A stretch of 17,264 nucleotides of DNA from assembly GCA_049509455.1 (NCBI GenBank), contig JBEKZX010000032.1:1-17264 (forward strand), read 5' to 3'. Below are positions 290 to 14,720 of this stretch, one piece after another (the first letter of the stretch is position 1; every line of letters starts with the position of its first letter). The DNA comes from Conexivisphaerales archaeon. GTDB taxonomy: Archaea > Thermoproteota > Nitrososphaeria > Conexivisphaerales > DTJL01. Position numbers and translations under genes: made by a program. Under the pieces are notes generated by a model. That model did not search any database. It was not told the origin of the DNA and saw nothing but the letters and a program-made list of their open reading frames with translations.

Positions 290-829
290 TCAGACCTTAG
301 TATAGATGCCCTCTAGACAGTACACTGACAGCTTCCCTGGGACAGGGCACCTCACTCCTAGGTCACACCTAGGGCACAACGATTCTGGCGTGCTATCCAA
401 AGTGCCCCCCTCCTCATGTAGCGCGTAAAGTAGCTTCAGGTACTTGCCCTCGGCCACCCGCGGGACGGCGTCCCTATTCTCCAGGCCGTACCATTCGTAG
501 AGCCTCTTGCTGCCCTTGCTTGAGTTGCAGCTCTTACATACCCACACGGCGTTGTCGGCGACGTCCGGGCCGCGACGGGCCCTGGGCAGGACGTGTTCCA
601 AGGTGAGCTGCGCCCGAGAGCCGCAGTAGACGCAGGAGCCCCCGATCTGGCGCTCCTTGACGTATTCCCTTATGGCGGATGACCATTCTATGTTCCCGGA
701 CTTCAGCTCCTTGAACCGGTTCATTATGAAGCCGTAGTTCTCCTTCCCTTCGCCCGCCGAATTGGAGATAATCTTGGCGTACTGCCAGTAGATCTGGTCC
801 CTTATCGTCCTGACGGCCGCTGGAGGCAT
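290..829 (-). CDS. HNH endonuclease with zinc-binding cysteines
   Basis: CVYCG...LTLEHVLPRARRGPDVADNAVWVCKSCNSSKG is a canonical CxxC-H-N-CxxCN HNH core. The ORF track starts at GTG 850; ATG 829 (MPPAAVRTIRD) is the more likely start. Confidence 0.88.
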   Translation of the reverse strand: MPPAAVRTIRDQIYWQYAKIISNSAGEGKENYGFIMNRFKELKSGNIEWSSAIREYVKERQIGGSCVYCGSRAQLTLEHVLPRARRGPDVADNAVWVCKSCNSSKGSKRLYEWYGLENRDAVPRVAEGKYLKLLYALHEEGGTLDSTPESLCPRCDLGVRCPVPGKLSVYCLEGIYTKV

Positions 830-966
830 GCATATCGTCTCACGCGGCACAGGGACATAAGGCTTGCATCTGGACGGATGAAACCGATGTCCAGGACCAG
901 GCCTGACGTCCGTTCGTCTAGCCCTGTACCCTTAACTAGTGTGAGCTGCTAAATGGTTGAATGAGA

Positions 967-1087
967 ATGTCTTCAGAGTTCAGGAAGGAGGTCTTCTTCG
1001 ACATGGAGACGACGGGGCTCTCCCCCTTCGACTCCCAGATCATCACCATCCAGGTGAGGGTTGACGGCAGGAACATCGTCTGGCCGG
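967..1087 (+). repeat. Direct repeat copy A (121 bp)
   Basis: Manual alignment to 12228-12347 shows 3 substitutions and one C indel. Confidence 0.95.
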
Positions 1088-1123
1088 TGTGGGAGGGCTC
1101 CGAGAGGGAAGTCGTCGATGACC
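967..1123 (+). pseudogene. 5' fragment (about 52 codons) of a DEDD/RNase H-like 3'-5' exonuclease gene
   Basis: MSSEFRKEVFFDMETTGLSPFDSQIITIQV carries the ExoI D-x-E-T-T-G motif. Protein-like sequence ends at WPVWEGSEREVVDDL, where it meets the stop codon of the opposite-strand gene (1124). The rest of ORF 961..1242 is antisense read-through. Confidence 0.75.
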
Positions 1124-3225: not shown

Positions 3226-4830
3226 ATGAAAGATGTTAGGAAGGATCCAGAGCTAGCCGAATTGTACATGAAAGGGTTCGAAGAGGGCGTTTCTAAGCAC
3301 ATCGTTCACCAGCAGATTTCGAGGAGAACTTTCGTCGCCAGCATGGCAGGACTTGGCGCCTTAGCCGCAACCCTGAGCCTCCCTTGGGTCAACTCCACTG
3401 AGGTCTCCAAGGAGATCGAGAAGATGACAAAGAACGTCCGGGCGCAGCGGACAGTATATGCGTCAACCCCGCCTCCCGCTCCATATACCGCAGGGAAGGG
3501 CACCATGCCTTACACCGTGGTGACCACGCCGCAGAGGTTCAACTACGACCTCCGAAATGGACCAGAGTTCTCACCTTTCGCGACAGACCCTACTACCCTT
3601 CAAGGTCAGTACTACGCTGCTAACCCCGCCGTCCTCCAAAAAGCCGAGGAAAACATGGGGTTGATTCCGACGAAGCTGGCCAACAATGTTGAGGGCTATA
3701 CCTGGCAGGCCCAGGCTTTGGAGACCGGCGCGGGTCTTTTCTTTGACAGCTCAACTACCATTGCAAAGGCCATCTATGGTGGGGCGGCGGTGCCCAATAC
3801 CTATGTGGGGACCGATGAGGGGCCATGGTTGCCGGTACAGGGAGGTTCGTTGGTCCCAGGGTCGAAGTGGCAGGGAAGCACCGCCGAAGCGGCACACAAA
3901 GCAAAGAAGGCTGCCAGATTCCTGGGGGCGGACCTGGTGGGGATCACAAGGTTGAACCAGTCGTGGATCTACTCCCAGAGGAGTGGTCTTCAAATAGAAT
4001 TCCAAGATGTTACGGCGCCGGCGGTGACGTTAACCAATGGCACCCCATCCGCGCTTGTGATTCCCTCAAGTGTGAACAACGCGATCGTCATGGCCTTTGA
4101 GGAAGACTATGGCGTGATGAGGAGCAGGAGCTCTGACCACTTCTCTACTTGGCTAACTCTATCTGGAGTCGCTAGATGCTATTCCAATCAGATGTTTGTC
4201 TCAAACATGGTCGCCGAGTACATCAGGGCTTTGGGGTACAACGCAATCCCCTGCGGAAATGATACTGGCCTGAGTATACCGCTGTCAATAGATGCCGGAT
4301 TGAGCGAAGGGGGGAGACATGGCCTGGGAATCACTCCTGAATTTGGTCCACAGGTGAGATGGGCGAAGGTCCTCACCGACCTCCCGATGGACGAGGACCC
4401 ATGGATGACGTTCGGTGTGAAGGAATTCTGTGATGTCTGTAAGTACTGTGCGAATACGTGTCCGACACTCTCGATTCCCTTGGGCGACATGGCGAGCACG
4501 GCACCGGCCGAATACTACTCGCAAGACGGCGTCCTCAAATGGAGGGTCAACCATACCCAGTGCAACTTCGGTCAATTCGCGGGAGGTTGTTTCTGCACGC
4601 TTTGCCAGCAGAACTGCCCGTGGGGAAGGGGGCCATCGTCCTTCCACAGCGTGGCGAGGTGGACGGCGAAGAACGCCTCAGGCCTCGATTCCGCATTCGT
4701 CTGGCTCGACCAGAACATGGGCTACGAAGACTCGGTCACAGAAAGCTACTGGTGGGACAACATCCCTGTCGAATGGAAGCACGGAACAAGGATCTTCAGG
4801 ACGCCGGAGCGCCCTGAGCATGAGGAGTAG
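3226..4830 (+). CDS. rdhA: Reductive dehalogenase catalytic subunit (corrinoid/Fe-S) with twin-arginine signal
   Basis: SRRTFV (residues 32-37) is followed by a hydrophobic stretch. RdhA-typical blocks are AARFLGADLVGI, AIVMAFEEDY, YS...AEYIRALGYNAIPCGNDTGLSIP and GRHGLGITPEFGPQVRWAKVLTDLP. Fe-S motifs are CDVCKYCANTCP (CX2CX2CX3CP) and C-X10-CTLCQQNCP. Confidence 0.93.
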   Translation: MKDVRKDPELAELYMKGFEEGVSKHIVHQQISRRTFVASMAGLGALAATLSLPWVNSTEVSKEIEKMTKNVRAQRTVYASTPPPAPYTAGKGTMPYTVVTTPQRFNYDLRNGPEFSPFATDPTTLQGQYYAANPAVLQKAEENMGLIPTKLANNVEGYTWQAQALETGAGLFFDSSTTIAKAIYGGAAVPNTYVGTDEGPWLPVQGGSLVPGSKWQGSTAEAAHKAKKAARFLGADLVGITRLNQSWIYSQRSGLQIEFQDVTAPAVTLTNGTPSALVIPSSVNNAIVMAFEEDYGVMRSRSSDHFSTWLTLSGVARCYSNQMFVSNMVAEYIRALGYNAIPCGNDTGLSIPLSIDAGLSEGGRHGLGITPEFGPQVRWAKVLTDLPMDEDPWMTFGVKEFCDVCKYCANTCPTLSIPLGDMASTAPAEYYSQDGVLKWRVNHTQCNFGQFAGGCFCTLCQQNCPWGRGPSSFHSVARWTAKNASGLDSAFVWLDQNMGYEDSVTESYWWDNIPVEWKHGTRIFRTPERPEHEE

Positions 4831-4845
4831 GGGGTACAAGAGAAC

Positions 4846-5082
4846 ATGGCTAAGATAGGCGGAATCATGGTAACGCCCAAGCTGGTGCTGCGAGGAGTAG
4901 TATGGTTGGTCTGGTTCATACTGTTGCTGTTAGCCGCATGGTTCGCGTCCGATGCCTATGCGGAGTATGTACCGACGATGGGCTTGACGGCGACGATATT
5001 CGCTGTCGTCTGGCTGATCCTCGGCATCGGCGTCTTTGTCTTCAACAGGCGAAGCAGATTCTTCAAGAAGAAAGCTCCTTAG
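4846..5082 (+). CDS. Small two-helix membrane protein, putative RdhB-type anchor
   Basis: It starts 15 nt after the rdhA stop on the same strand. It has two long hydrophobic segments (VVWLVWFILLLLAAWFAS; TMGLTATIFAVVWLILGIGVFVF) and a basic tail (RRSRFFKKK). Alternative start is ATG 4867. Confidence 0.72.
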   Translation: MAKIGGIMVTPKLVLRGVVWLVWFILLLLAAWFASDAYAEYVPTMGLTATIFAVVWLILGIGVFVFNRRSRFFKKKAP

Positions 5083-5194: not shown

Positions 5195-5899
5195 CTAGAG
5201 TGTAACAAGGTAAGCTTCTTCGCTTCGGCTGGGTCCCTGATGGACTACATTTCCGTCCTTGTCGACGATTCTGCTGCCTCCCGTAAGTCCGATGCGCCCC
5301 TTTTGGAACGTGTATGAGCCGACCCAGTTAGACAACACTTTGTGATACCCCGTTCTAGCGGACCCGTATGACGCTGAATCCTTAGGCAGGCTCAGTGCCG
5401 CAGGAACCAGAAGGGCATCTATGCGCCCCTTCAGATCTTCCAGCTCGGACGTGTAACCTGAATCGAGGCAGACCACGGAGGAAATCGCTGTCTTGCCCAC
5501 TCTGACTATGTCAGGACCGCGCTCTCCTCGAGTGAAGGTACCGATCTCGTGGCCGAAGAGGTGCCTTTTCCTGTAACGATAGGCCACCTTCCCGCATGAA
5601 ATGACAACGCTGCAGTCATACAGAAGCCCCTTCTCCTCCATAGCTTCGCCTGAGACTATGGTGTTATTGTGCTCGGCAGTAAAATCTCTTAGGGCTTCCA
5701 CATGCTTGCCCCCAACTTGTTTGATCGCCCGCAAAGCTTGGTCGCGGGTCCAAGCTCGGTAGCCTATGTTCGCCATCTCTGGGAGGACTATGAAGTCTGC
5801 ATCCGCTATCGAGCGCGCAAGGGCCAAGCATCTACCCATCGCTCCCTTTCCGTCACCCTTCATAAGCCTTGGCTGCACAAAACCGAAGGAGAGTCCCAT
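5195..5899 (-). CDS. Carbon-nitrogen hydrolase (nitrilase superfamily)
   Basis: The Glu-Lys-Cys triad is present in family context: VLPEM, YRKRHLF, VVCLD. The C-terminal GGSRIVDKDG is also typical. Confidence 0.88.
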   Translation of the reverse strand: MGLSFGFVQPRLMKGDGKGAMGRCLALARSIADADFIVLPEMANIGYRAWTRDQALRAIKQVGGKHVEALRDFTAEHNNTIVSGEAMEEKGLLYDCSVVISCGKVAYRYRKRHLFGHEIGTFTRGERGPDIVRVGKTAISSVVCLDSGYTSELEDLKGRIDALLVPAALSLPKDSASYGSARTGYHKVLSNWVGSYTFQKGRIGLTGGSRIVDKDGNVVHQGPSRSEEAYLVTL

Positions 5900-5914: not shown

Positions 5915-6574
5915 CTAAGAATTGAAGACGACGACCACGGAGAGAATGGGGTAGGTGCCATTGCTTAACTCAGCCAGAGACCCCACGGCAATCCCCTCGT
6001 TCAGGGTGAGATTATAGCACACCATCGCCTTGGTTCCTTCTCCCAATATTGGCGAAAGCCGCCCAGCCAGGGCCTCTGGAGGGTAATCTTCGTCGCAGAG
6101 AATGACGAGATGTTTCCCGTTCTCATAGGCCATCTTCATGAAGCCGAAGGACTCCTCTCTGTCTGCCACCTTGTGGAAGGACACGATGACGCTATCCTCT
6201 AGACTGATGCGGGCTTTGGCGGCTGCGACCTGAACGGAGCTTATCCCAGGCACCAGTTCCACCTCGAACCCTGAAAACGGCTCCAAGACCTTGTTGATGG
6301 CGGACGATACCGTAACATCACCTGTCCTCAGGACGCAGACTGTTAGCCCCCTGGTCCTGGCTTCCTCTGCGACTTCATTCGCGACTTCCCAGACGTTGGC
6401 CTCGTTCTGGACGCGCGGCGATGCCTTTAGGGGCAAGCCCTTGACAACCTGGATGGCCTCGGTCCAGCCTACGACTAGGTCAGCTGAAGTTATGATTCGT
6501 TTGGCCCCATCGGTGAGCATGTCTGGAGCTCCCGGCCCCACTCCCACTACGAATAGCTTCGGCAACGAGGCCAT
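5915..6574 (-). CDS. cbiE: Tetrapyrrole methylase, CbiE-like
   Basis: VVGVGPGAPDMLT (GxGPG), TGDV in place of the usual GDP, ELVPGISSVQVAAA, IVSFH, and YNL in place of ENL. The length and motifs best fit the CbiE subfamily. Confidence 0.72.
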   Translation of the reverse strand: MASLPKLFVVGVGPGAPDMLTDGAKRIITSADLVVGWTEAIQVVKGLPLKASPRVQNEANVWEVANEVAEEARTRGLTVCVLRTGDVTVSSAINKVLEPFSGFEVELVPGISSVQVAAAKARISLEDSVIVSFHKVADREESFGFMKMAYENGKHLVILCDEDYPPEALAGRLSPILGEGTKAMVCYNLTLNEGIAVGSLAELSNGTYPILSVVVVFNS

Positions 6575-6773: not shown

Positions 6774-7355
6774 ATGACCATGTCCAGCTTCAAAGGCCTA
6801 AACAGGGTTGGGCCTTCATTGATGCGCAGAGACGAAGCTGGTTCCCCTGCGCCACTCAAGATGGCGCTGCTCATTGTCGACCCCATCAGGGGCATGATGG
6901 AACTTCGACGTGGAACGGGGCAGATACTGCCTAACGTGGCTGCGTTGGCAGACGCTGCTCGGGAAAGAGGCATTCCTGTCTTCTACGTGACCCATGTTAT
7001 GAGGGACGGTAGAGATTCCGAAATCTTGGCAGAGCTGAGGCCTGGCAAGGGGGACATCAAAGTGGACAAACGGGACTACAGCGCGTTCAGAGGGACGCGA
7101 CTGGAGGAAATGCTCAAGATGAAGGGGGTGACGACGATCGTAATCGCGGGGATCTATTCCGACCTCTGCGTCCGTTATAGTTCGGAGGACGCTATCAGGC
7201 TGGGCTTCAAGGTTATCGTCCCGCTCGATTGCATCAAGAGCTACCAGGTGGAAGAGTCAGAGGCCACCGTTAAGCTGCGTGCTTTGGAAGGCCTGATTCC
7301 AACTGATTCGGCCTCTTTGATTGAAGCCGATTTCGACGTAAGCAGACTTGCGTGA
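6774..7355 (+). CDS. Isochorismatase/cysteine hydrolase family protein
   Basis: The Asp-Lys-Cys triad is in ALLIVD, DKRDYSAF and GIYSDLCV. The true start may be ATG 6822 or 6861. Confidence 0.88.
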   Translation: MTMSSFKGLNRVGPSLMRRDEAGSPAPLKMALLIVDPIRGMMELRRGTGQILPNVAALADAARERGIPVFYVTHVMRDGRDSEILAELRPGKGDIKVDKRDYSAFRGTRLEEMLKMKGVTTIVIAGIYSDLCVRYSSEDAIRLGFKVIVPLDCIKSYQVEESEATVKLRALEGLIPTDSASLIEADFDVSRLA

Positions 7356-7659: not shown

Positions 7660-9063
7660 AAGGTTGCGCTCGTGGTCCCGCCTCTCCCTGGCGGAGTTCT
7701 ACGTGATTCTGTCTGCGTCTCGCCACCATTGAACGTGACATATTTAGGGGCGGTCTTGAGGTCCGGTGGTCACGAAGTCGCAATCGTCGACTCTCCAGCC
7801 TCACGGCTTGACGAACTCAAAGCAGCGGAGAAAGTGAAGTCTTTCGGGCCCGACCTAGTCGGCATATCTTCACTTTCGCAGACCTACAACAGTTCCCTAA
7901 AAGTTGCACACGCCATCAGGGAGATCCTTCCAGATGTTCCCATTTCCACAGGCGGTCCACATGCGACCTTCTTCGACCGTCAGACGGCACAACACCCCGA
8001 TGTTGACATAGTCGTACGTGGAGAAGGAGAGGCCACCATCGTGGACTTGGCGAACCAGCTTGAAGCGGGACATGGGTTAGATGCCGTCCTCGGAATCACC
8101 TACAAGGAAGGCGCCAGAGTCATCTCGAACGGGGATAGACCTTTCATACAGGACTTGGACTCCTTGCCTTTTCCCGCTTACGATCTTATTCCCCTCTCTC
8201 TGTATGGAGCCTTGCGAGGAAGGAAGATCTTCCTCCTGCTCTCAAGCAGAGGGTGTCCCTATGGATGCGGTTTCTGCATTATGTATAAGATGGATGGCAA
8301 CAGGGTCCGCGCTAGATCTCCAAAGAACGTTGCGGACGAAATCGAGCTTCTGATCAGCCTTGGCGCCGATTCCTTCTCCTTCTGTGACGAGACTTTCACC
8401 TTCAATGCGAAAGGGGTAGAAGGCATTTGCGACGAAATCCTAGCCCGTCGACTCGAGATACCTTGGGACTGTCAAACGCGCTCAGACTTGCTCAAGCCAT
8501 CGTTGCTAGAGAAGATGAGGAAGTCTGGCTGTGAGCTCATCTGCTTGGGCGTGGAATCAGGCTCACAGCGGATACTCGATAGAATGAAGAAGAGGACAAC
8601 CGTCGCGATGAACCTGGAAGGCGTTCGCGCGATCAAGAAGGCCGGAATTGCCGTTTCGACGAGCTTGATTATTGGTTATCCGGGGGAGGACGCGGAGAGC
8701 CTGGAAGAGACCATCAGGTTCGTCAAGACGACATCGCCGGACATAGCCTATCTCAACATAGCTACGCCATTTCCCGGGACGGAGTTTTACGATGAGGTTT
8801 CCTCTTCGGGGCTTATTCAGGAATTCGAATGGCAGAAATATGACATAACGATGCCCGTCTTTGAGACGACTACGATGAAAAAGGAAACATTGCTTAGGGC
8901 ACGGCGGTCCTTCTACAACTCTTGGTACTCTCTTGGCTACGTCCTTAGGAACCTCACAAAGGAGAATTTCTACAATAGGACTATGGGCTGGTTCGCGCTG
9001 AATTACATCAAATGGCGGTTTACGAACTCTCTTAAGAAGGGCGTATTCCGAAGCTTCAGATGA
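7660..9063 (+). CDS. B12-binding domain radical SAM enzyme (class B methyltransferase-like)
   Basis: N-terminal Rossmann-type B12 domain (KVALVVPP...PDLVGIS...GGPHAT...VRGEGE), SRGCPYGCGFC (CX3CX2C), GVESGSQRIL and IIGYPGE. Homology begins at 7660, upstream of the ORF-track GTG at 7672. Confidence 0.92.
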   Translation, partial: KVALVVPPLPGGVLRDSVCVSPPLNVTYLGAVLRSGGHEVAIVDSPASRLDELKAAEKVKSFGPDLVGISSLSQTYNSSLKVAHAIREILPDVPISTGGPHATFFDRQTAQHPDVDIVVRGEGEATIVDLANQLEAGHGLDAVLGITYKEGARVISNGDRPFIQDLDSLPFPAYDLIPLSLYGALRGRKIFLLLSSRGCPYGCGFCIMYKMDGNRVRARSPKNVADEIELLISLGADSFSFCDETFTFNAKGVEGICDEILARRLEIPWDCQTRSDLLKPSLLEKMRKSGCELICLGVESGSQRILDRMKKRTTVAMNLEGVRAIKKAGIAVSTSLIIGYPGEDAESLEETIRFVKTTSPDIAYLNIATPFPGTEFYDEVSSSGLIQEFEWQKYDITMPVFETTTMKKETLLRARRSFYNSWYSLGYVLRNLTKENFYNRTMGWFALNYIKWRFTNSLKKGVFRSFR

Positions 9064-9145: not shown

Positions 9146-9154
9146 CTTATAAAT
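9146..9154 (+). promoter_or_regulatory. Candidate TATA box for the NrdJ-like gene
   Basis: CTTATAAAT lies about 31 nt before TTG 9186. Confidence 0.55.
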
Positions 9155-9185
9155 GAAATGACGCCGAAATTGGCAGGAACGCGAC

Positions 9186-10775
9186 TTGACTGGTCGTACG
9201 CGGTTCTTCCCTCCTTTAACTAAAAGCGCGTACGACCACAGCCTGTCGCGATACGTGCTGAAGGATGGCGCCGGCGTACCAGTTGAATCTTATCAGGAGA
9301 TGTTCCGACGCGTGTGCGATTATGCTCTGAAACGTGAGGGCAGTGGCGCCGGCGGAGAGGTCGTCGCAGATTTTCGCAACTTGATAACGGGGTTAGTGTT
9401 CCTTCCCGGCACCCCTGTGTTGGTCGGTGCAGGCGTCGAAGGTGCCCAGCTCTTTGCAGCGGTGGCGTTCCCCTTCAGGCCCTTCGCCCTTACTCGCTCC
9501 TTGCTGGTCACGTCTCAGCGTGGGGGCGCTGGGACCTCCTATTGTATCAGGTCGCGTCACGGCGAACAATGGGATCGAATACGGTATCGCATTAGTCAAC
9601 TTGACAAGGCCACTCGATCCGTTAAACAGGGCGGGTGCAGGCAAGGCTGTAGCCTCGCGGTCATGAGGGCTGATGACCCAAACGTAGACCAATTCGTTAT
9701 GGCTAAGCTGGATAGGAACCTAGCGCCTAACACGGGCACCAGTGTTGCCCTCAATGATTCGCAAATGGAGGAACTGGCTGGGGGAGGTGACGAGGATCTC
9801 TTTTCTAGGATGACTGAAGCCATTCATGAAGTCGGCGAGCCTGGTGTCATATTCAGTGATGAAGTCAATAGGGAAAATCCAATCTCGCATTTAGGCCATA
9901 TTGGCGCTTCCAGCGCCTGCGCAGAAGTCCCTCTGATGGATTATGAAGCGTGTCAGTTGGGGGCTGTCGACGTAAGCAAGCTCATCTATGATGGTGATTT
10001 CGACTTCGACCTCCTGAAAAGGGCCACCAAATCGGCCGTGAGGTTCTTGGACGACATGATCGATTTGACGTCATACCCTGACGAAAGGGTTCGATGTGCG
10101 ACCATGTCGTCTAGGAAGATGGGGGTTGGAGTCATGGGCCTGGCTGACCTGTTCGCTTCACTGGAACTGCAGTACGGAGAGGATGATTCTGTCCAGCTGT
10201 GCCGTGAGATAGCCTCCACAATGCGCCTCGCAGCAATGGAAGAAAGCAAGACGTTGGCCGAGGAACGCGGGTCATGCCCTGCGTTGGAGGAAATCGGAGT
10301 GATGAGGAGGAACGCAACGTTGCTCGCCATCCCGCCCTCAGGTTCGATAAGCCTGATTGCTGGCTGCTCAAGCGGGATAGAGCCCTATTTCTCCTTTCCA
10401 GTGACGATGCATCGGGTCGAAGGTACAGGCCGGCTCGAAGTTAGCCGAGTCCTTGTGGAGCGTCTCAAGCGTTTAGGATTTCGAGTTTCCGCGGAGGGTC
10501 TCCTAGACGTGCCGACGTCGTCGCGCTTGGGCTTGGAGCTCCGGAGTGCTCATCACATCTTCAGGACAGCCACTGAATTGGCCCCAGAACGGCACTTGGC
10601 GATCGCCAAGGCATTTCAGACATACTTCGACAATTCCGTCTCCAAAACGGTCGCGCTGCAAGAAGAGTCCTCTCCAGAAGAAGTAAGCAAGATAATTGTC
10701 CAAGCGTGGAGGATGGGCTTGAAAGGAATTTCGATTTTCAGGCCTGCGAGCGGTGAAAGGCTGATCTACAGTTGA
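9186..10775 (+). CDS. Divergent class II (adenosylcobalamin-type) ribonucleotide reductase homolog
   Basis: NrdJ blocks are recognisable throughout: FLPGTP, KQGG, GEPGVIF, DYEACQLG, AVRFLDDMID, RKMGVGVMGLAD, RNATLLAIPPSGSIS, SSGIEP, FQTYFDNSVSKT and KGISIFR. There is no class I Tyr-Tyr pair. Catalytic positions are altered (see findings). Confidence 0.88.
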   Translation: MTGRTRFFPPLTKSAYDHSLSRYVLKDGAGVPVESYQEMFRRVCDYALKREGSGAGGEVVADFRNLITGLVFLPGTPVLVGAGVEGAQLFAAVAFPFRPFALTRSLLVTSQRGGAGTSYCIRSRHGEQWDRIRYRISQLDKATRSVKQGGCRQGCSLAVMRADDPNVDQFVMAKLDRNLAPNTGTSVALNDSQMEELAGGGDEDLFSRMTEAIHEVGEPGVIFSDEVNRENPISHLGHIGASSACAEVPLMDYEACQLGAVDVSKLIYDGDFDFDLLKRATKSAVRFLDDMIDLTSYPDERVRCATMSSRKMGVGVMGLADLFASLELQYGEDDSVQLCREIASTMRLAAMEESKTLAEERGSCPALEEIGVMRRNATLLAIPPSGSISLIAGCSSGIEPYFSFPVTMHRVEGTGRLEVSRVLVERLKRLGFRVSAEGLLDVPTSSRLGLELRSAHHIFRTATELAPERHLAIAKAFQTYFDNSVSKTVALQEESSPEEVSKIIVQAWRMGLKGISIFRPASGERLIYS

Positions 10776-10916
10776 GCGATGTCCAGTCGCGTCATGGTCG
10801 GTCGTGTATCGGGTGGGTACGAAATACTTGTGCATCCTGGCCCGCATGGTCCTGTCGAAGACGCTAGGCGACGGTGTCCGGTCCGTACTGACTGCACGAG
10901 ATCCCTTGGCCCTGGG

Positions 10917-11936
10917 TCAAGCGGGGTACGCGCCACATACTCGACAATAGTTCTTTCCATGCTCGACTCCGCTTCCGCAGCATCGGCACTTCTTCTCCAG
11001 GTCCGGGTAGGCGGGTTTGTCCCCAAACTTGCTAACATAGTACCGATAGCATATCAGCTGTTCCTTGTTCCTAAGGGCAAGTCCGTTGCGGGCCAACCTC
11101 TCCTTCTCCTTGGCGAACTCCCCGTCGGAGATCTCCTCATCAGCGAGGACTTCGGCATAAGTCGTCCCCGTTCCCGCCTCTATGGGGGCCTTGGGCCTCC
11201 AAAGTATCTCGTCGGGAAGAAGGCCCCTATGCGCTTGCCGCACGATCCATTTCCCCCACCGCTGCCCGTTGACTTCTCTCACCTTCAGATCGGCTGGGAC
11301 GCTCTTGGAGAACTGTAGGAAATCGGCGTGCAGGGCCGGGATATCGACCTCGATGCCCACGTACCTTCCCAAATCTCTTGACGTGAACGACATGACGGCC
11401 CACATAGCCTCAAGCGCCTTCTGCAGGTCCCCGTAATCGGTCATGTCCACGAAGAAGCTGTACCCAGCATAGAGCTCGTCGAAAGCATCCCCTGTCAGCA
11501 CCCTGCGCATGCCGTGATCCTTCGCCAATCTGAGCGCCAGGTAGATGGAGGCGCTGTTCCTGACTTCGACTGGGTCGAAGGTATGGAGGGCTTCGATGAC
11601 GTGATGTGAAGCGTCCGTGTACTCTTCAAGGTCGAACTCATGGAAGAAGTGTTCCATCCCCAGCAGTGACGCCACCCTCTTTGCGTAGGGCGGGTCTGAT
11701 GGGCTCCCCATGGTGAAGGCGACCGTGGCCGCCTTAGGCCTAGAACTGCGTGTTGCCGAATATGAAACAACGCTCGTGTCAAGGCCGCCAGAAAGCAGTA
11801 TGCCGTCGGCCTTGGCTTCAGCCGTAGCTTGGTTGAGGATTGTCCTTAGAAGTGCGGAACATCTACGTAGACTCGATTCGTCCGGCAGGCCCACGAAATG
11901 TGGATGTATCCTGTGCGCAGATAAGTCTTTAATCAC
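10917..11936 (-). CDS. Asparagine-synthase-like ATP pyrophosphatase (synthetase domain only) with C-terminal zinc ribbon
   Basis: LLSGGLDTS PP-loop, VLTGDAFDELYAGY and GKWIVR...LPDEILWRPKAP. It ends with CRCC...CRVCGAYP. There is no N-terminal Ntn glutaminase domain. Confidence 0.85.
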   Translation of the reverse strand: MIKDLSAHRIHPHFVGLPDESSLRRCSALLRTILNQATAEAKADGILLSGGLDTSVVSYSATRSSRPKAATVAFTMGSPSDPPYAKRVASLLGMEHFFHEFDLEEYTDASHHVIEALHTFDPVEVRNSASIYLALRLAKDHGMRRVLTGDAFDELYAGYSFFVDMTDYGDLQKALEAMWAVMSFTSRDLGRYVGIEVDIPALHADFLQFSKSVPADLKVREVNGQRWGKWIVRQAHRGLLPDEILWRPKAPIEAGTGTTYAEVLADEEISDGEFAKEKERLARNGLALRNKEQLICYRYYVSKFGDKPAYPDLEKKCRCCGSGVEHGKNYCRVCGAYPA

Positions 11937-12227: not shown

Positions 12228-12347
12228 ATGTCTTCCGAGTTCAGGAAGGAGGTCTTCTTCGATATGGAGACGACGGGGCTCTCCCCTTCGACTCCCAGAT
12301 CATCACCATCCAGGTGAGGGTCGACGGCAGGAACATCGTCTGGCCGG
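12228..12347 (+). pseudogene. Direct repeat copy B: frameshifted 5' fragment of the same exonuclease gene
   Basis: Near-identical to 967-1087 from the ATG onward. CTCTCCCCTTCG has one C fewer than copy A, which shifts the frame after TTGLSP. Similarity stops at TGGCCGG. Confidence 0.9.
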
Positions 12348-12379
12348 GATTGGAGCATAGGATGCTATGTTTAAGCCGG
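12342..12379 (+). repeat. Hairpin element copy 1
   Basis: GGCCGGGATTGGAGCATAG-GATG-CTATGTTTAAGCCGG. The first 28 nt are 26/28 identical to 13398-13425. Confidence 0.8.
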
Positions 12380-12817: not shown

Positions 12818-13264
12818 TCAGGCCTCAAGAGCCTTCTTGAGGTTCTCTAGCATCTTGTAGTCTGCCTTTTCCAGTTCCCTCCGGGCCACCAACGCCTCGA
12901 ACAATTTGCCCAGAACAGAATATTTCATTTCATAGTCTATAGAGTATGTCGCCTTGGTTCCCTTGGTCGTGGGTTCAAGGGTAAATGAGTTGGTCGAATT
13001 GAGGGCGCGCCTGCGTGTTCCCACGGCGCGCATCGTCATCCTCTGGTTCTTGACAAGTTCGGTTACTCTGATGTCCCACTCTCCTCCTTTGTTCCTGCCC
13101 ACGCCAACCACATGCGCAGTTGAGCCGACTGCAATGGGTCCATCTGAGGTCCACTTGATCGTTGTCCACTCCTTCCATATGTCATTCATCTTCTCGCTCA
13201 TCAAGAAAGCAAAGACTTCCTCGGGAGTCGCTAGGATTTCGACAGTCGCAGTTGACTCTGTCAT
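12818..13264 (-). CDS. SRPBCC/START-like (polyketide cyclase-type) ligand-binding protein
   Basis: TVEILATPEEVFAFL...GPIAVGSTAH...RVTELVKNQRM...FTLEPTTKGTKATYSIDY...LENLKKALE is the typical SRPBCC pattern. Confidence 0.88.
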   Translation of the reverse strand: MTESTATVEILATPEEVFAFLMSEKMNDIWKEWTTIKWTSDGPIAVGSTAHVVGVGRNKGGEWDIRVTELVKNQRMTMRAVGTRRRALNSTNSFTLEPTTKGTKATYSIDYEMKYSVLGKLFEALVARRELEKADYKMLENLKKALEA

Positions 13265-13270
13265 GCAGTT

Positions 13271-13305
13271 ACCTCATGATCCTATTTGCGCGCTGAATTT
13301 AAAAG
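13271..13305 (-). promoter_or_regulatory. RBS and TATA for the SRPBCC gene
   Basis: On the minus strand, CTTTTAAAT (13305-13297) is followed by GAGGT (13275-13271) before ATG 13264. Confidence 0.6.
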
Positions 13306-13397
13306 ACTTCCTGAGCCTGGTTCCGCAAGCTCCGCGTTTGGCAGTCCTTCGCTCCTTTGGTGGAGCCACCTACACCCTGAGCGTGGTACCAGATTCA

Positions 13398-13435
13398 GGC
13401 CGGGAAGGGAGCATAGGATGCTATGCTCAAACCAG
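13398..13435 (+). repeat. Hairpin element copy 3
   Basis: GGCCGGGAAGGGAGCATAG-GATG-CTATGCTCAAACCAG has perfect 8-bp arms GAGCATAG/CTATGCTC (13409-13428). It overlaps the stop codon of the surface-protein gene. Confidence 0.8.
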
Positions 13436-14720
13436 ATTCTGATGACGTCGCAGCCTGCGCTCGACGAGTACGGCCATGAGCACGCCGATGAAGACTGTGA
13501 AGAACGGGAGGGACGCCGGGAACTCCGGTATCGGAGTTGCCGTTGATATTTCTACCAGGTGGGGTCCAGGGGAGAGCTGGAACACTATCGTCGCGTAGGT
13601 CGCGTTCTGGGAGATCGTGTAGGATTGGTTCTCGCCGTCGACGCTGAGGAGGAGCGGCGCTGGAAGGAGCCCGGCCGGCACCGCGACGGACGTCTGGATC
13701 GCGCCAGCAGGCGGCCTATGGGTTCGAAATGAAATCAGGCGGGAGCCCTGGTCGAAGGTCAAGTTGGTCACCCATGCATTCGCCTCCACTGCCACGGCGG
13801 GGGCCTGGAGCAGATAGGTGCGGTCAGGCAGTGTCAGCAGGGCGTTCCGCACTGTCAGCAGGCTGTCAAAGAAGAGGCCTTGGGCCAATTGCTGCTGGGC
13901 TAGGGCAAGCGCAGGGTTCCCGGGGCCTAGGATGGGCGTCGCCCACTGCATCATGAACTCCGGATTTAAGGCCGCCATGAATTCGTCCGGTGAAAGCACG
14001 ACCCCACCCGCACGTTGGAGGTCCCCTGCGAACTGTGGCGTCTCCGCAAAGCTCTGACCCGGCTGAACCAGGGAAATCTGTATCGCAGCAAAGACCGGAA
14101 AGTTCAGGCTTTCATCCCTAGTCGTGTTGATGTAATCGATGTACAGATTCGTGGAGTTGTAGTAGGTCATCTTGATTTGGATCCCCTGTGAAAGATCGCC
14201 TAAGGTGAAATTCACCGTGAAGTCTTGGAATTTGCCAGGTTGATCGAAATCGCTGGACGAGACGGTTCTCTGGGCCAACGTAACAGGCGACGTCGAATTC
14301 TCGGTCACCAGAAGTGAGGCGACCGGGGCCGTGGGTTGGTTATCGGTGACTTTCAACCGATATACCGCGGTGTAGTTGCCCGGCGCGAGGGACATCCACA
14401 CTGGACCGTAAGTGCCGAAAGTTGGAGCTCCCTGGGAGAAGAGGACAGATTGACCGCTGAGGGCATCCGTATCATTGACTACGATCCCGCCCTGCCACGG
14501 ATAGGAAGCCATGTCGATGAAGACTTGATCGGATCTGCGGTTGAGAAGGTCATCTATTATCCACGCGCCGTTGGTCATGTTCAATGCATAACTCTGGCGC
14601 ACTCCAGGCGTGGGAACCCCCCCATACTCGAGGTTGAGGCCCCAATTGAATCCATAGTCGCTCACGATGGCACCTAGGTAGCCGGAGTCGTGTAGGTACT
14701 CGTAGTAGAGGGGCGCCACA
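13427..14720 (-). pseudogene. N-terminally truncated PEF-CTERM cell-surface glycoprotein
   Basis: The C-terminus TPIPEFPASLPFFTVFIGVLMAVLVERRLRR is PEF + TM + basic tail (PEF at 13528-13520). It has many N-x-S/T sequons and a beta-sandwich-like insert. There is no signal peptide, and the ORF-track start (GTG 14746) lies inside the upstream oxidoreductase sequence. Confidence 0.75.

Follow-up and report, generated by a model that had tools for sequence, protein, structure and literature searches.

The 17,264-nt stretch analysed here (hereafter the window) covers positions 1 to 17,264 of contig JBEKZX010000032.1, assembly GCA_049509455.1, from a Conexivisphaerales archaeon. Within it, a forward-strand gene at 9186–10775 encodes a protein, P0001, that is related to the class II ribonucleotide reductase (RNR) NrdJ and lies in a block together with a homolog of the reductive dehalogenase RdhA and putative cobamide-related genes. 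A preliminary description of this DNA, made from its letters alone, had taken P0001 for a repurposed RNR homolog encoded by an intact open reading frame (ORF), and the frame indeed runs through 529 residues with no stop inside, downstream of the TATA-like TTATAAAT, which may act as its promoter. The TTG is the sole in-frame start after the upstream stop TGA (9159–9161), and conservation with a 51% identical homolog, P0003, starts at residue 8, which identifies the long TTG-start form as the real gene. The NCBI and JGI gene calls start at internal ATGs (336 residues in P0126; 370 residues in P0122, P0123 and P0125) and lose the N-terminal 160–190 residues, which comprise the N-domain and the region of a lost cysteine. 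A 179-residue ORF further downstream (10779–11318, forward strand), which matched no family, lies antisense to part of the AsnS-like gene and is called by JGI on one short contig (L008), was judged to be spurious.

The relationship of P0001 to RNRs was evident from its matches to PF02867 (RNR barrel; 3.4e-72) and PF00317 (RNR all-alpha N-domain; 7.2e-11). An AlphaFold2 model built from 12 sequences (pLDDT 83, pTM 0.89) displayed the class II RNR fold, with a ten-stranded alpha/beta barrel, a finger loop and an N-terminal all-alpha domain, and its best Foldseek match was T. maritima NrdJ 1xje (E 7.9e-39, TM 0.84). P0001 nevertheless scored under the curated cut-off of every NCBIfam RNR model, reaching 328.8 bits for TIGR02504 NrdJ_Z (cut-off 399.95) and 334.6 bits for NF006417 (cut-off 961).

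A search of approximately 5.8 billion protein clusters yielded five further lineages with the same lesions as P0001, making six in all (P0001, P0003, P0021, P0131, P0278 and P0279). P0021, P0131, P0278 and P0279 are 35–38% identical to P0001 and approximately 50% identical among themselves. A tree was built from the six proteins, 70 canonical NrdJs drawn at random and four other atypical NrdJs. One branch, with a Shimodaira–Hasegawa-like approximate likelihood ratio test (SH-aLRT) support of 99, separated the six from the rest, and P0001 and P0003 were carried on a long stem (1.23 substitutions per site). With six lineages, the family is very rare: scanning metagenomes with a P0001 and P0003 alignment gave just one more identical locus, the six-member alignment, run against a genome collection, retrieved 80 canonical NrdJ loci from species-representative genomes and no family member, and 400 genomes of the same phylum contained canonical NrdJs alone (approximately 700 residues, at most 38% identity). 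P0263 (L011 344–2383, GCA_018655015.1), a full-length NrdJ that has an ATP cone and a beta-A cysteine, reads SPCAE in place of NPCGE and lacks a C-terminal cysteine tail, was considered as an evolutionary intermediate and rejected, as the tree puts it among canonical NrdJs; judged by this placement, its Asn-to-Ser change is independent of, and unrelated to, the six-lineage family. The P0263 gene adjoins a CobA/BtuR adenosyltransferase.

Residues were mapped by a HMMER alignment to T. maritima NrdJ 1xje, in which IGASSACAEVPLMDYEAC of P0001 aligned on INSTNPCGEIGLSDYEAC, and the beta-A strand was placed from multiple alignments (A1 and A2); the six family members were tabulated against 375 other NrdJ-type proteins. 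QLFAAVA (88–94) lies over the canonical QLSACFV, so that Ala92 stands in place of the beta-A redox cysteine, in agreement with the preliminary description. This position is A/S/A/V/V/T in the six members and Cys in 320 of the 326 other NrdJs that aligned there. Its partner on beta-F, Cys256 of YEAC, falls on T. maritima Cys333 and had correctly been described as kept; P0001 therefore has one half of the beta-A/beta-F redox pair. Both Cys256 and the thiyl Cys245 are invariant across the family. In the finger loop, SSACAE (242–247) aligned on TNPCGE, with Ser243 on Asn320, Cys245 on Cys322 (the thiyl cysteine) and Glu247 on Glu324, again as first read. The finger-loop asparagine, present in 339 of the 375 other NrdJs, is replaced throughout the family (S, S, S, S, S, G), as is the glycine after the thiyl cysteine (Ala in six of six), and the NxCxE motif common to class O, I and II RNRs (PMC9669993) is broken in P0001 (SACAE) and in every relative. 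The retention of Glu247 holds for P0001 but is not a family trait, the residue being E, E, E, V, V, V in the six members and Glu in 374 of the 375 other proteins.

A cysteine has also been gained. Loop 2 of P0001 reads KQGGCRQGC (147–155), as reported earlier, but of its two cysteines only Cys155 is conserved in the relatives, while Cys151 is private to P0001. At position 155, all six members carry Cys (alignment A4), whereas Ala is found in 343 and Cys in none of the 375 other NrdJs. According to DSSP on the model, residue 92 is the first position of beta-A and Cys155 lies just ahead of beta-C, and the strand topology places both at the same end of the first half-barrel. The NFN ahead of beta-D is NTG in all six proteins. 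The P0001 chain ends 10 residues past the last barrel strand (median of 48 in the other NrdJs) without any cysteine, bearing out the absence of the C-terminal cysteine tail, and the cysteine-pair or zinc-finger tail, to which PMC5704485 assigns a role in re-reduction in class II RNR, is gone from all six members. The effector region, previously called shortened and unrecognisable, is shortened but can still be recognised, since it differs from canonical NrdJs by two discrete deletions, of 4 residues at the DS(L/I) motif and 10 residues in loop 1 (as defined in PMC9669993), both common to the six members; P0001 consequently lacks a loop 1/effector site.

The phosphate-binding loops can still be made out. 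In NrdJs, the apical loop motif is P-N-S-P in the nucleoside diphosphate (NDP) type, in which the last three of these positions are fixed, and P-A-G-R in the nucleoside triphosphate (NTP) type (PMC8365446). P0001 has neither motif and reads PGTP, with PSTP, PNSP, PSSP, PSSP and PTSP in its relatives, so that Ser/Thr is kept in all six members and Asn is not. The distal phosphate loop is still recognisable as IPPSGSIS, and the motifs flanking the cofactor pocket, KGISIFR on beta-J and DNSVSKT, are conserved. P0001 thus bears the family signature of no beta-A cysteine, S/G-x-C-A-[EV], Cys155, NTG for NFN and no tail. P0001 is by descent and fold a NrdJ, but of the tested features that define a working class II RNR, only the thiyl cysteine and the beta-F cysteine are kept.

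These changes do not look like decay. The frames are intact in six lineages, with full-length frames in the five further ones down to 35% identity, and the ratio of nonsynonymous to synonymous substitution rates (dN/dS) in the only measurable pair, the RNR-like genes of loci L010 and L024 (77% amino-acid identity), was 0.115, similar to that of the neighbouring CN-hydrolase (0.144); the window was too saturated against L009 for such an estimate. The losses of Cys and Asn emphasised in the preliminary description are common to the whole clade, and the singleton under neutral decay that it had named as the counter-case was not what was found. The genome itself (2.05 Mb, 95.5% complete) encodes a canonical NrdJ on contig C56, 34% identical to P0001, with an ATP cone, a beta-A cysteine followed by the DS motif, KQGGIRRGA, TNPCGE, ESC, APTGSIS and a zinc-finger type tail (CxxC...CxxC), which answers the earlier question of a full RNR elsewhere. 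Directly beside the canonical gene on contig C56 is an NrdD-like open frame of 693 residues (approximately 12868–13608, reverse strand; L005).

Table 1. Features of the window and key codons of the P0001 gene
Feature	Position	Strand	Remarks
Direct repeat, left copy	967..1095	+	129 nt; 95-97% identity to right copy
RdhA homolog	3226..4830	+	Tat-type SRRTF signal; TIGR02486 192.5 bits, cut-off 160.35
Small membrane protein, RdhB-like anchor	4846..5082	+	78 aa, hydrophobic
CN-hydrolase (nitrilase superfamily), candidate glutaminase or amidase	5195..5899	-	PF00795 1.3e-15
CbiE-like class III methyltransferase, orphan	5915..6574	-	TIGR02467 98.9 bits, cut-off 92.9
Isochorismatase-family hydrolase	6774..7355	+	PF00857 7.6e-33
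B12-binding radical SAM enzyme (BchE/HpnJ-like)	7672..9063	+	PF02310 + PF04055; CxxxCxxC at residue 195
TATA-like TTATAAAT	9147..9154	+	32 nt 5' of TTG start; read from sequence
NrdJ-derived RNR-like protein P0001	9186..10775	+	529 aa, TTG start; PF02867 + PF00317
Codon GCG, Ala92 at beta-A redox Cys position (E. coli C225 / T. maritima C134)	9459..9461	+	
Codon for Cys155, loop 2 end / beta-C start	9648..9650	+	Family-specific invariant Cys
Finger-loop motif S242-S243-A244-C245-A246-E247 (canonical TNPCGE)	9909..9926	+	From alignments
Codon for Cys256 (YEAC; E. coli C462 / T. maritima C333)	9951..9953	+	Invariant
AsnS-like PP-loop synthetase domain, no own glutaminase domain	10917..11936	-	PF00733 2.3e-37; SGGLDT PP-loop
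Direct repeat, right copy	12228..12355	+	95-97% identity to left copy

The gene context was compared over the five loci with flanking sequence, namely the window, L009, L010, L024 and the contigs carrying P0279 (the features of the window are collected in Table 1). A CbiE-like methyltransferase and a CN-hydrolase accompanied the RNR-like gene in all five, an AsnS-like gene in four, and RdhA likewise in four, the fifth contig being cut off. The enzyme adjacent to P0001 had rightly been described as a radical SAM (S-adenosylmethionine) enzyme, and its domains further mark it as B12-binding. Its proposed role as the working partner of P0001 did not hold up, since a B12-radical SAM gene is found in two of the five loci and a 56% identical ortholog only in L009, against the constant presence of the CbiE-like and CN-hydrolase genes. 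What stands of the preliminary description is hence a repurposed RNR homolog that is neither a working reductase copy nor a decaying gene, which is backed by the canonical NrdJ, the losses common to the clade and the dN/dS value. The isochorismatase is present at the window locus only, without a counterpart at the other RNR-like loci.

The order of the genes in the module varies among the sister loci. L009 is tightly packed and contains RdhA, a small protein, the B12-radical SAM enzyme, a thermosome paralog, the CbiE-like (40% identical to the window gene), CN-hydrolase (30%) and AsnS-like (47%) genes and the RNR-like gene. The P0279 contigs carry RdhA, a VcrB-like protein (a faint match, in the role of RdhB counterpart), a thermosome paralog, the CbiE-like, CN-hydrolase, RNR-like and AsnS-like genes, ApbE and a NosR/RdhC-like protein. 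In L010, CbiE-like, CN-hydrolase and RNR-like genes with stop/start overlap were found with a B12-binding-domain protein and, at the contig end, a fragment of RdhA with a Tat signal, while L024 comprises TatA, TatC, a radical SAM gene, the CbiE-like, CN-hydrolase and RNR-like genes and a fragment of the AsnS-like gene at the contig end. In the sample of P0003, genes for a CN-hydrolase, an AsnS-like protein and a CbiE-like protein of 57% identity were additionally found together on one contig. The rdhA gene clusters with a NrdJ-like accessory are mostly archaeal, and their chaperonin paralogs, Tat genes and ApbE/NosR-like pair are what is expected around a Tat-exported corrinoid dehalogenase. 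Overall, the synteny favours a role in handling cobamide for a reductive dehalogenase over one in dehydrating nucleotides in general metabolism. Adjoining the module in L010 (912–4859) and L024 (1783–5645, reverse strand) is a set of four genes with no Pfam match (approximately 316, 172, 522–532 and 206–210 residues). In the window, the direct repeat begins at an ATG and flanks the whole 11.26-kb rdhA/cobamide block, and the block may have arrived as an island whose insertion duplicated the head of a gene; an HNH endonuclease gene (approximately 290–850, reverse strand) lies just upstream of the left copy.

The partner genes indicate that the cobamide is acquired by salvage. The genome holds two TP_methylase genes in all and one PduO-type adenosyltransferase, and no CobS was detected in it, which implies that corrinoids are salvaged and not made, and that the CbiE-like gene is an orphan. 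The next relatives of this gene beyond the module (45%, 41% and 39% identity, one of them from a Marsarchaeota genome) lie in operons with BtuF/BtuC/BtuD-type transporters, CbiA/CobQ-type amidotransferases, CobA or PduO adenosyltransferases, CobU, CbiB and CobD-like proteins, a setting that assigns this methyltransferase clade to cobamide salvage. Such relatives were located at L120 10001–10687, L122 6325–7062 and L124 10001–10663, in hosts (Marsarchaeota and others) that would need no precorrin methylase. The CN-hydrolase retains the motifs of the Glu-Lys-Cys triad (LPEMAN for Glu, RKRHLF for Lys and VVCLDS for Cys), and its position beside a glutaminase-less PP-loop synthetase, which recalls glutamine-dependent NAD synthetase, suggests that the two proteins form a split amidotransferase acting on a carboxylate.

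We hold with good confidence that P0001 is not an RNR and that it is instead a conserved accessory of the rdhA/cobamide module. Regarding its role, we lean, at somewhat less than even confidence and on the basis of sequence comparison, towards a neofunctionalised NrdJ paralog that would handle adenosyl-cobamide for the rdhA module and perform no ribonucleotide reduction. The RNR-like protein, CbiE-like methyltransferase, CN-hydrolase and AsnS-like PP-loop synthetase would together form a module that handles salvaged cobamide. Salvage pathways end in adenosyl-cobamide, and the cobamide of RdhA has no upper ligand. A specific mechanism, possible rather than probable, would have P0001 act as a de-adenosylase that strips the adenosyl group from salvaged adenosyl-cobamide and supplies cob(II)amide to RdhA before Tat export. 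Adenosyl-cobamide would be bound in the NrdJ pocket and its Co–C bond homolysed, after which Cys245 would give a hydrogen atom to the 5'-deoxyadenosyl radical; in class II RNR, the homolysis is reversible and the finger-loop cysteine donates a hydrogen atom in the same manner. The cycle could not close as in an RNR, since the beta-A cysteine, the finger-loop asparagine, the reducing tail and often the glutamate are missing, and quenching of the thiyl radical might instead fall to the newly gained Cys155 and the conserved Cys256. This would leave 5'-deoxyadenosine and cob(II)amide free of an upper ligand as the net products, the latter being the form that RdhA would need ahead of Tat export and that would presumably be handed on to it. 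In a study by Booker and colleagues (Biochemistry, 1994), mutants of the active-site cysteine pair of L. leichmannii ribonucleoside triphosphate reductase (RTPR) reportedly converted adenosylcobalamin (AdoCbl) irreversibly to 5'-deoxyadenosine and cob(II)alamin.

Some observations count against the proposed adenosyl-cobamide role. No adenosyltransferase or cobamide transporter was found within the RNR-like loci themselves. Variants within the population of the window (L006–L008, L025 and L026) affect six codons, with four nonsynonymous changes, all conservative, and two synonymous ones, a number too small to reveal constraint directly in this lineage. Both phosphate-binding loops (PGTP and IPPSGSIS) are moreover still recognisable, so the protein perhaps continues to bind a phosphorylated ligand, for which a pure de-adenosylase has no obvious use. 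This last objection is tempered by the requirement of the canonical enzymes for a nucleotide to trigger Co–C cleavage.

The retained thiyl cysteine and phosphate loops, including the Ser/Thr of the apical loop in all six members (for the role of this loop, see PMC8365446), would also suit a thiyl-radical enzyme that acts on a nucleotide-like small molecule as one step of a tailoring pathway, for instance as a lyase or through a redox-neutral 2'-elimination in which water or another 2' leaving group is lost. This explanation, which comes closest to the dehydratase or lyase of the preliminary description, appears somewhat unlikely to us. Such a pathway would also involve the methyltransferase and the split amidotransferase, joined at times by the B12-radical SAM enzyme, and the gene is tightly coupled in operons with the enzymes in L009, L010 and L024; candidate substrates are nucleotides, lower-ligand ribotides and the nucleotide loop of a cobamide. 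The deletion of loop 1 and the specificity site is as expected of a single-substrate enzyme, and in RNR mutants, loss of the beta-A cysteine diverts the chemistry to 3'-keto-2'-deoxy products. However, no enzyme that would obviously trap the unstable 3'-keto-2'-deoxynucleotides is conserved, and Glu247, the general base of the RNR 2'-elimination, is Val in three of the six members, which weakens any mechanism copying the RNR dehydration step exactly. Cofactor supply would also account better than free nucleotide metabolism for the constant association with a Tat-exported RdhA and with a methyltransferase clade of salvage operons.

The same synteny could be accounted for by a non-catalytic protein that only binds cobamide in the NrdJ pocket and serves RdhA as a carrier, chaperone or sensor during maturation or regulation; the loss of the catalytic Asn, Cys and in part Glu, and the dedicated chaperone that the clusters have in the thermosome paralog, would be in line with this. 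A purely binding role is nevertheless quite unlikely, as it does not explain three invariant cysteines around the former active site at approximately 35–50% identity, one of them newly gained, with which the regulatory pseudoenzyme suggested earlier also fits poorly. The new cysteine might alternatively have kept the protein an RNR, with Cys155, invariant, family-specific and located at the N-terminal end of beta-C at the same half-barrel end as residue 92, replacing the beta-A cysteine and pairing with Cys256, and with tail-free re-reduction by a small or protein reductant. Many genomes contain two nrdJ genes (PMC8365446), yet a second reductase remains very unlikely here, considering the NxCxE motif broken in six of six members, the glutamate lost in three, the absence of a reducing tail and of a loop 1/effector motif, the scores under all curated RNR cut-offs, the stem branch of 1.23 substitutions per site, and a neighbourhood of rdhA and cobamide genes instead of genes for DNA metabolism. 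A decaying pseudogene or singleton relic of a duplicated nrdJ would agree with the shortened public gene calls and with the four nonsynonymous against two synonymous population variants. It is extremely improbable in view of the intact 529-codon frame, the full-length frames in five more lineages, the dN/dS of 0.115, the invariant shared derived residues, the conserved synteny and the alignment of the unannotated N-terminal part with P0003 from residue 8 onwards.

Compared with known RNRs, P0001 resembles T. maritima NrdJ (PDB 1xje/3o0o; TIGR02504, NF006417) in its ten-stranded barrel and N-terminal helical domain (TM 0.84). It keeps from the dimeric NrdJ the finger-loop cysteine, the beta-F cysteine, the distal phosphate loop and the beta-J and DNxVSKT motifs of the cofactor pocket, at approximately 34–38% identity to canonical NrdJs. 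It differs from them in lacking the beta-A cysteine, the finger-loop asparagine, the loop 1/DS site, the PNSP apical motif and the cysteine pair or zinc finger, as well as in the gained Cys155, the sub-cut-off scores and the rdhA/cobamide gene context. Its relative P0021 (L009 9392–11008), which is nearer to canonical NrdJ but likewise lacks the beta-A cysteine, the asparagine and the tail, scored 453.6 bits against TIGR02504, above the cut-off of 399.95, and would thus be called a working NrdJ by automatic annotation; since public annotations shorten P0001 or name its relatives ordinary NrdJs, metabolic reconstructions may over-count RNRs. NF005401 (PRK06948), annotated as 'ribonucleotide reductase-like protein', is also an RNR-like subfamily, on which no functional literature was found, and P0001 is not a member (194 bits, cut-off 906). 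The closest parallels to the lesion itself are the RNR cysteine mutants (E. coli R1 C225S/C462S and L. leichmannii RTPR C119S/C419S), in which one bottom-face cysteine is lost in the same way. These mutants are said to destroy their substrate and, in the class II enzyme, to turn AdoCbl into 5'-deoxyadenosine and cob(II)alamin. They are engineered and suicidal, whereas the NrdJ-like family is natural, under purifying selection and equipped with further compensating changes.

To our knowledge, all members of the class I/II RNR lineage studied so far produce deoxyribonucleotides, and the literature searched yielded no description of an RNR-lineage protein with a non-reductase role; a preprint on sinefungin that deals with AdoCbl consumption was set aside, as it concerns an unrelated radical SAM enzyme. 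If true, the de-adenosylase reading would be the first case of a non-reductase function in this lineage and might explain how corrinoid dehalogenases come by a cofactor free of the upper ligand. A conserved offshoot that has the radical cysteine but no reduction machinery would show that the RNR scaffold was recruited for other chemistry, like its glycyl-radical cousins, and there is a real chance that this natural RNR-derived family performs new chemistry. Its fixed place by rdhA and salvage-type genes makes it a testable candidate for a step in dehalogenase maturation, the preparation and insertion of the cobamide. The literature searched described no accessory of rdh operons that was RNR-like, CbiE-like, AsnS-like or a CN-hydrolase. 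The nearest known counterparts are the accessories of bacterial rdh operons (the trigger-factor chaperone PceT/RdhT, CprD/CprE, the NosR-like RdhC, and neighbouring genes for cobamide biosynthesis or remodelling), which are likewise cytoplasmic helpers beside a Tat-exported RdhA/RdhB. Bacterial cpr/pce operons encode GroEL-like and trigger-factor-like helpers, and the sister loci share with bacterial rdh operons a chaperonin paralog, the ApbE and NosR-like pair and Tat genes. The thermosome (group II chaperonin) paralog inside the rdhA cluster (L009 5359–7011; a 531-residue gene on the P0279 contigs) is in this respect the archaeal parallel to the GroEL-like CprD/CprE of the bacterial cpr operons.

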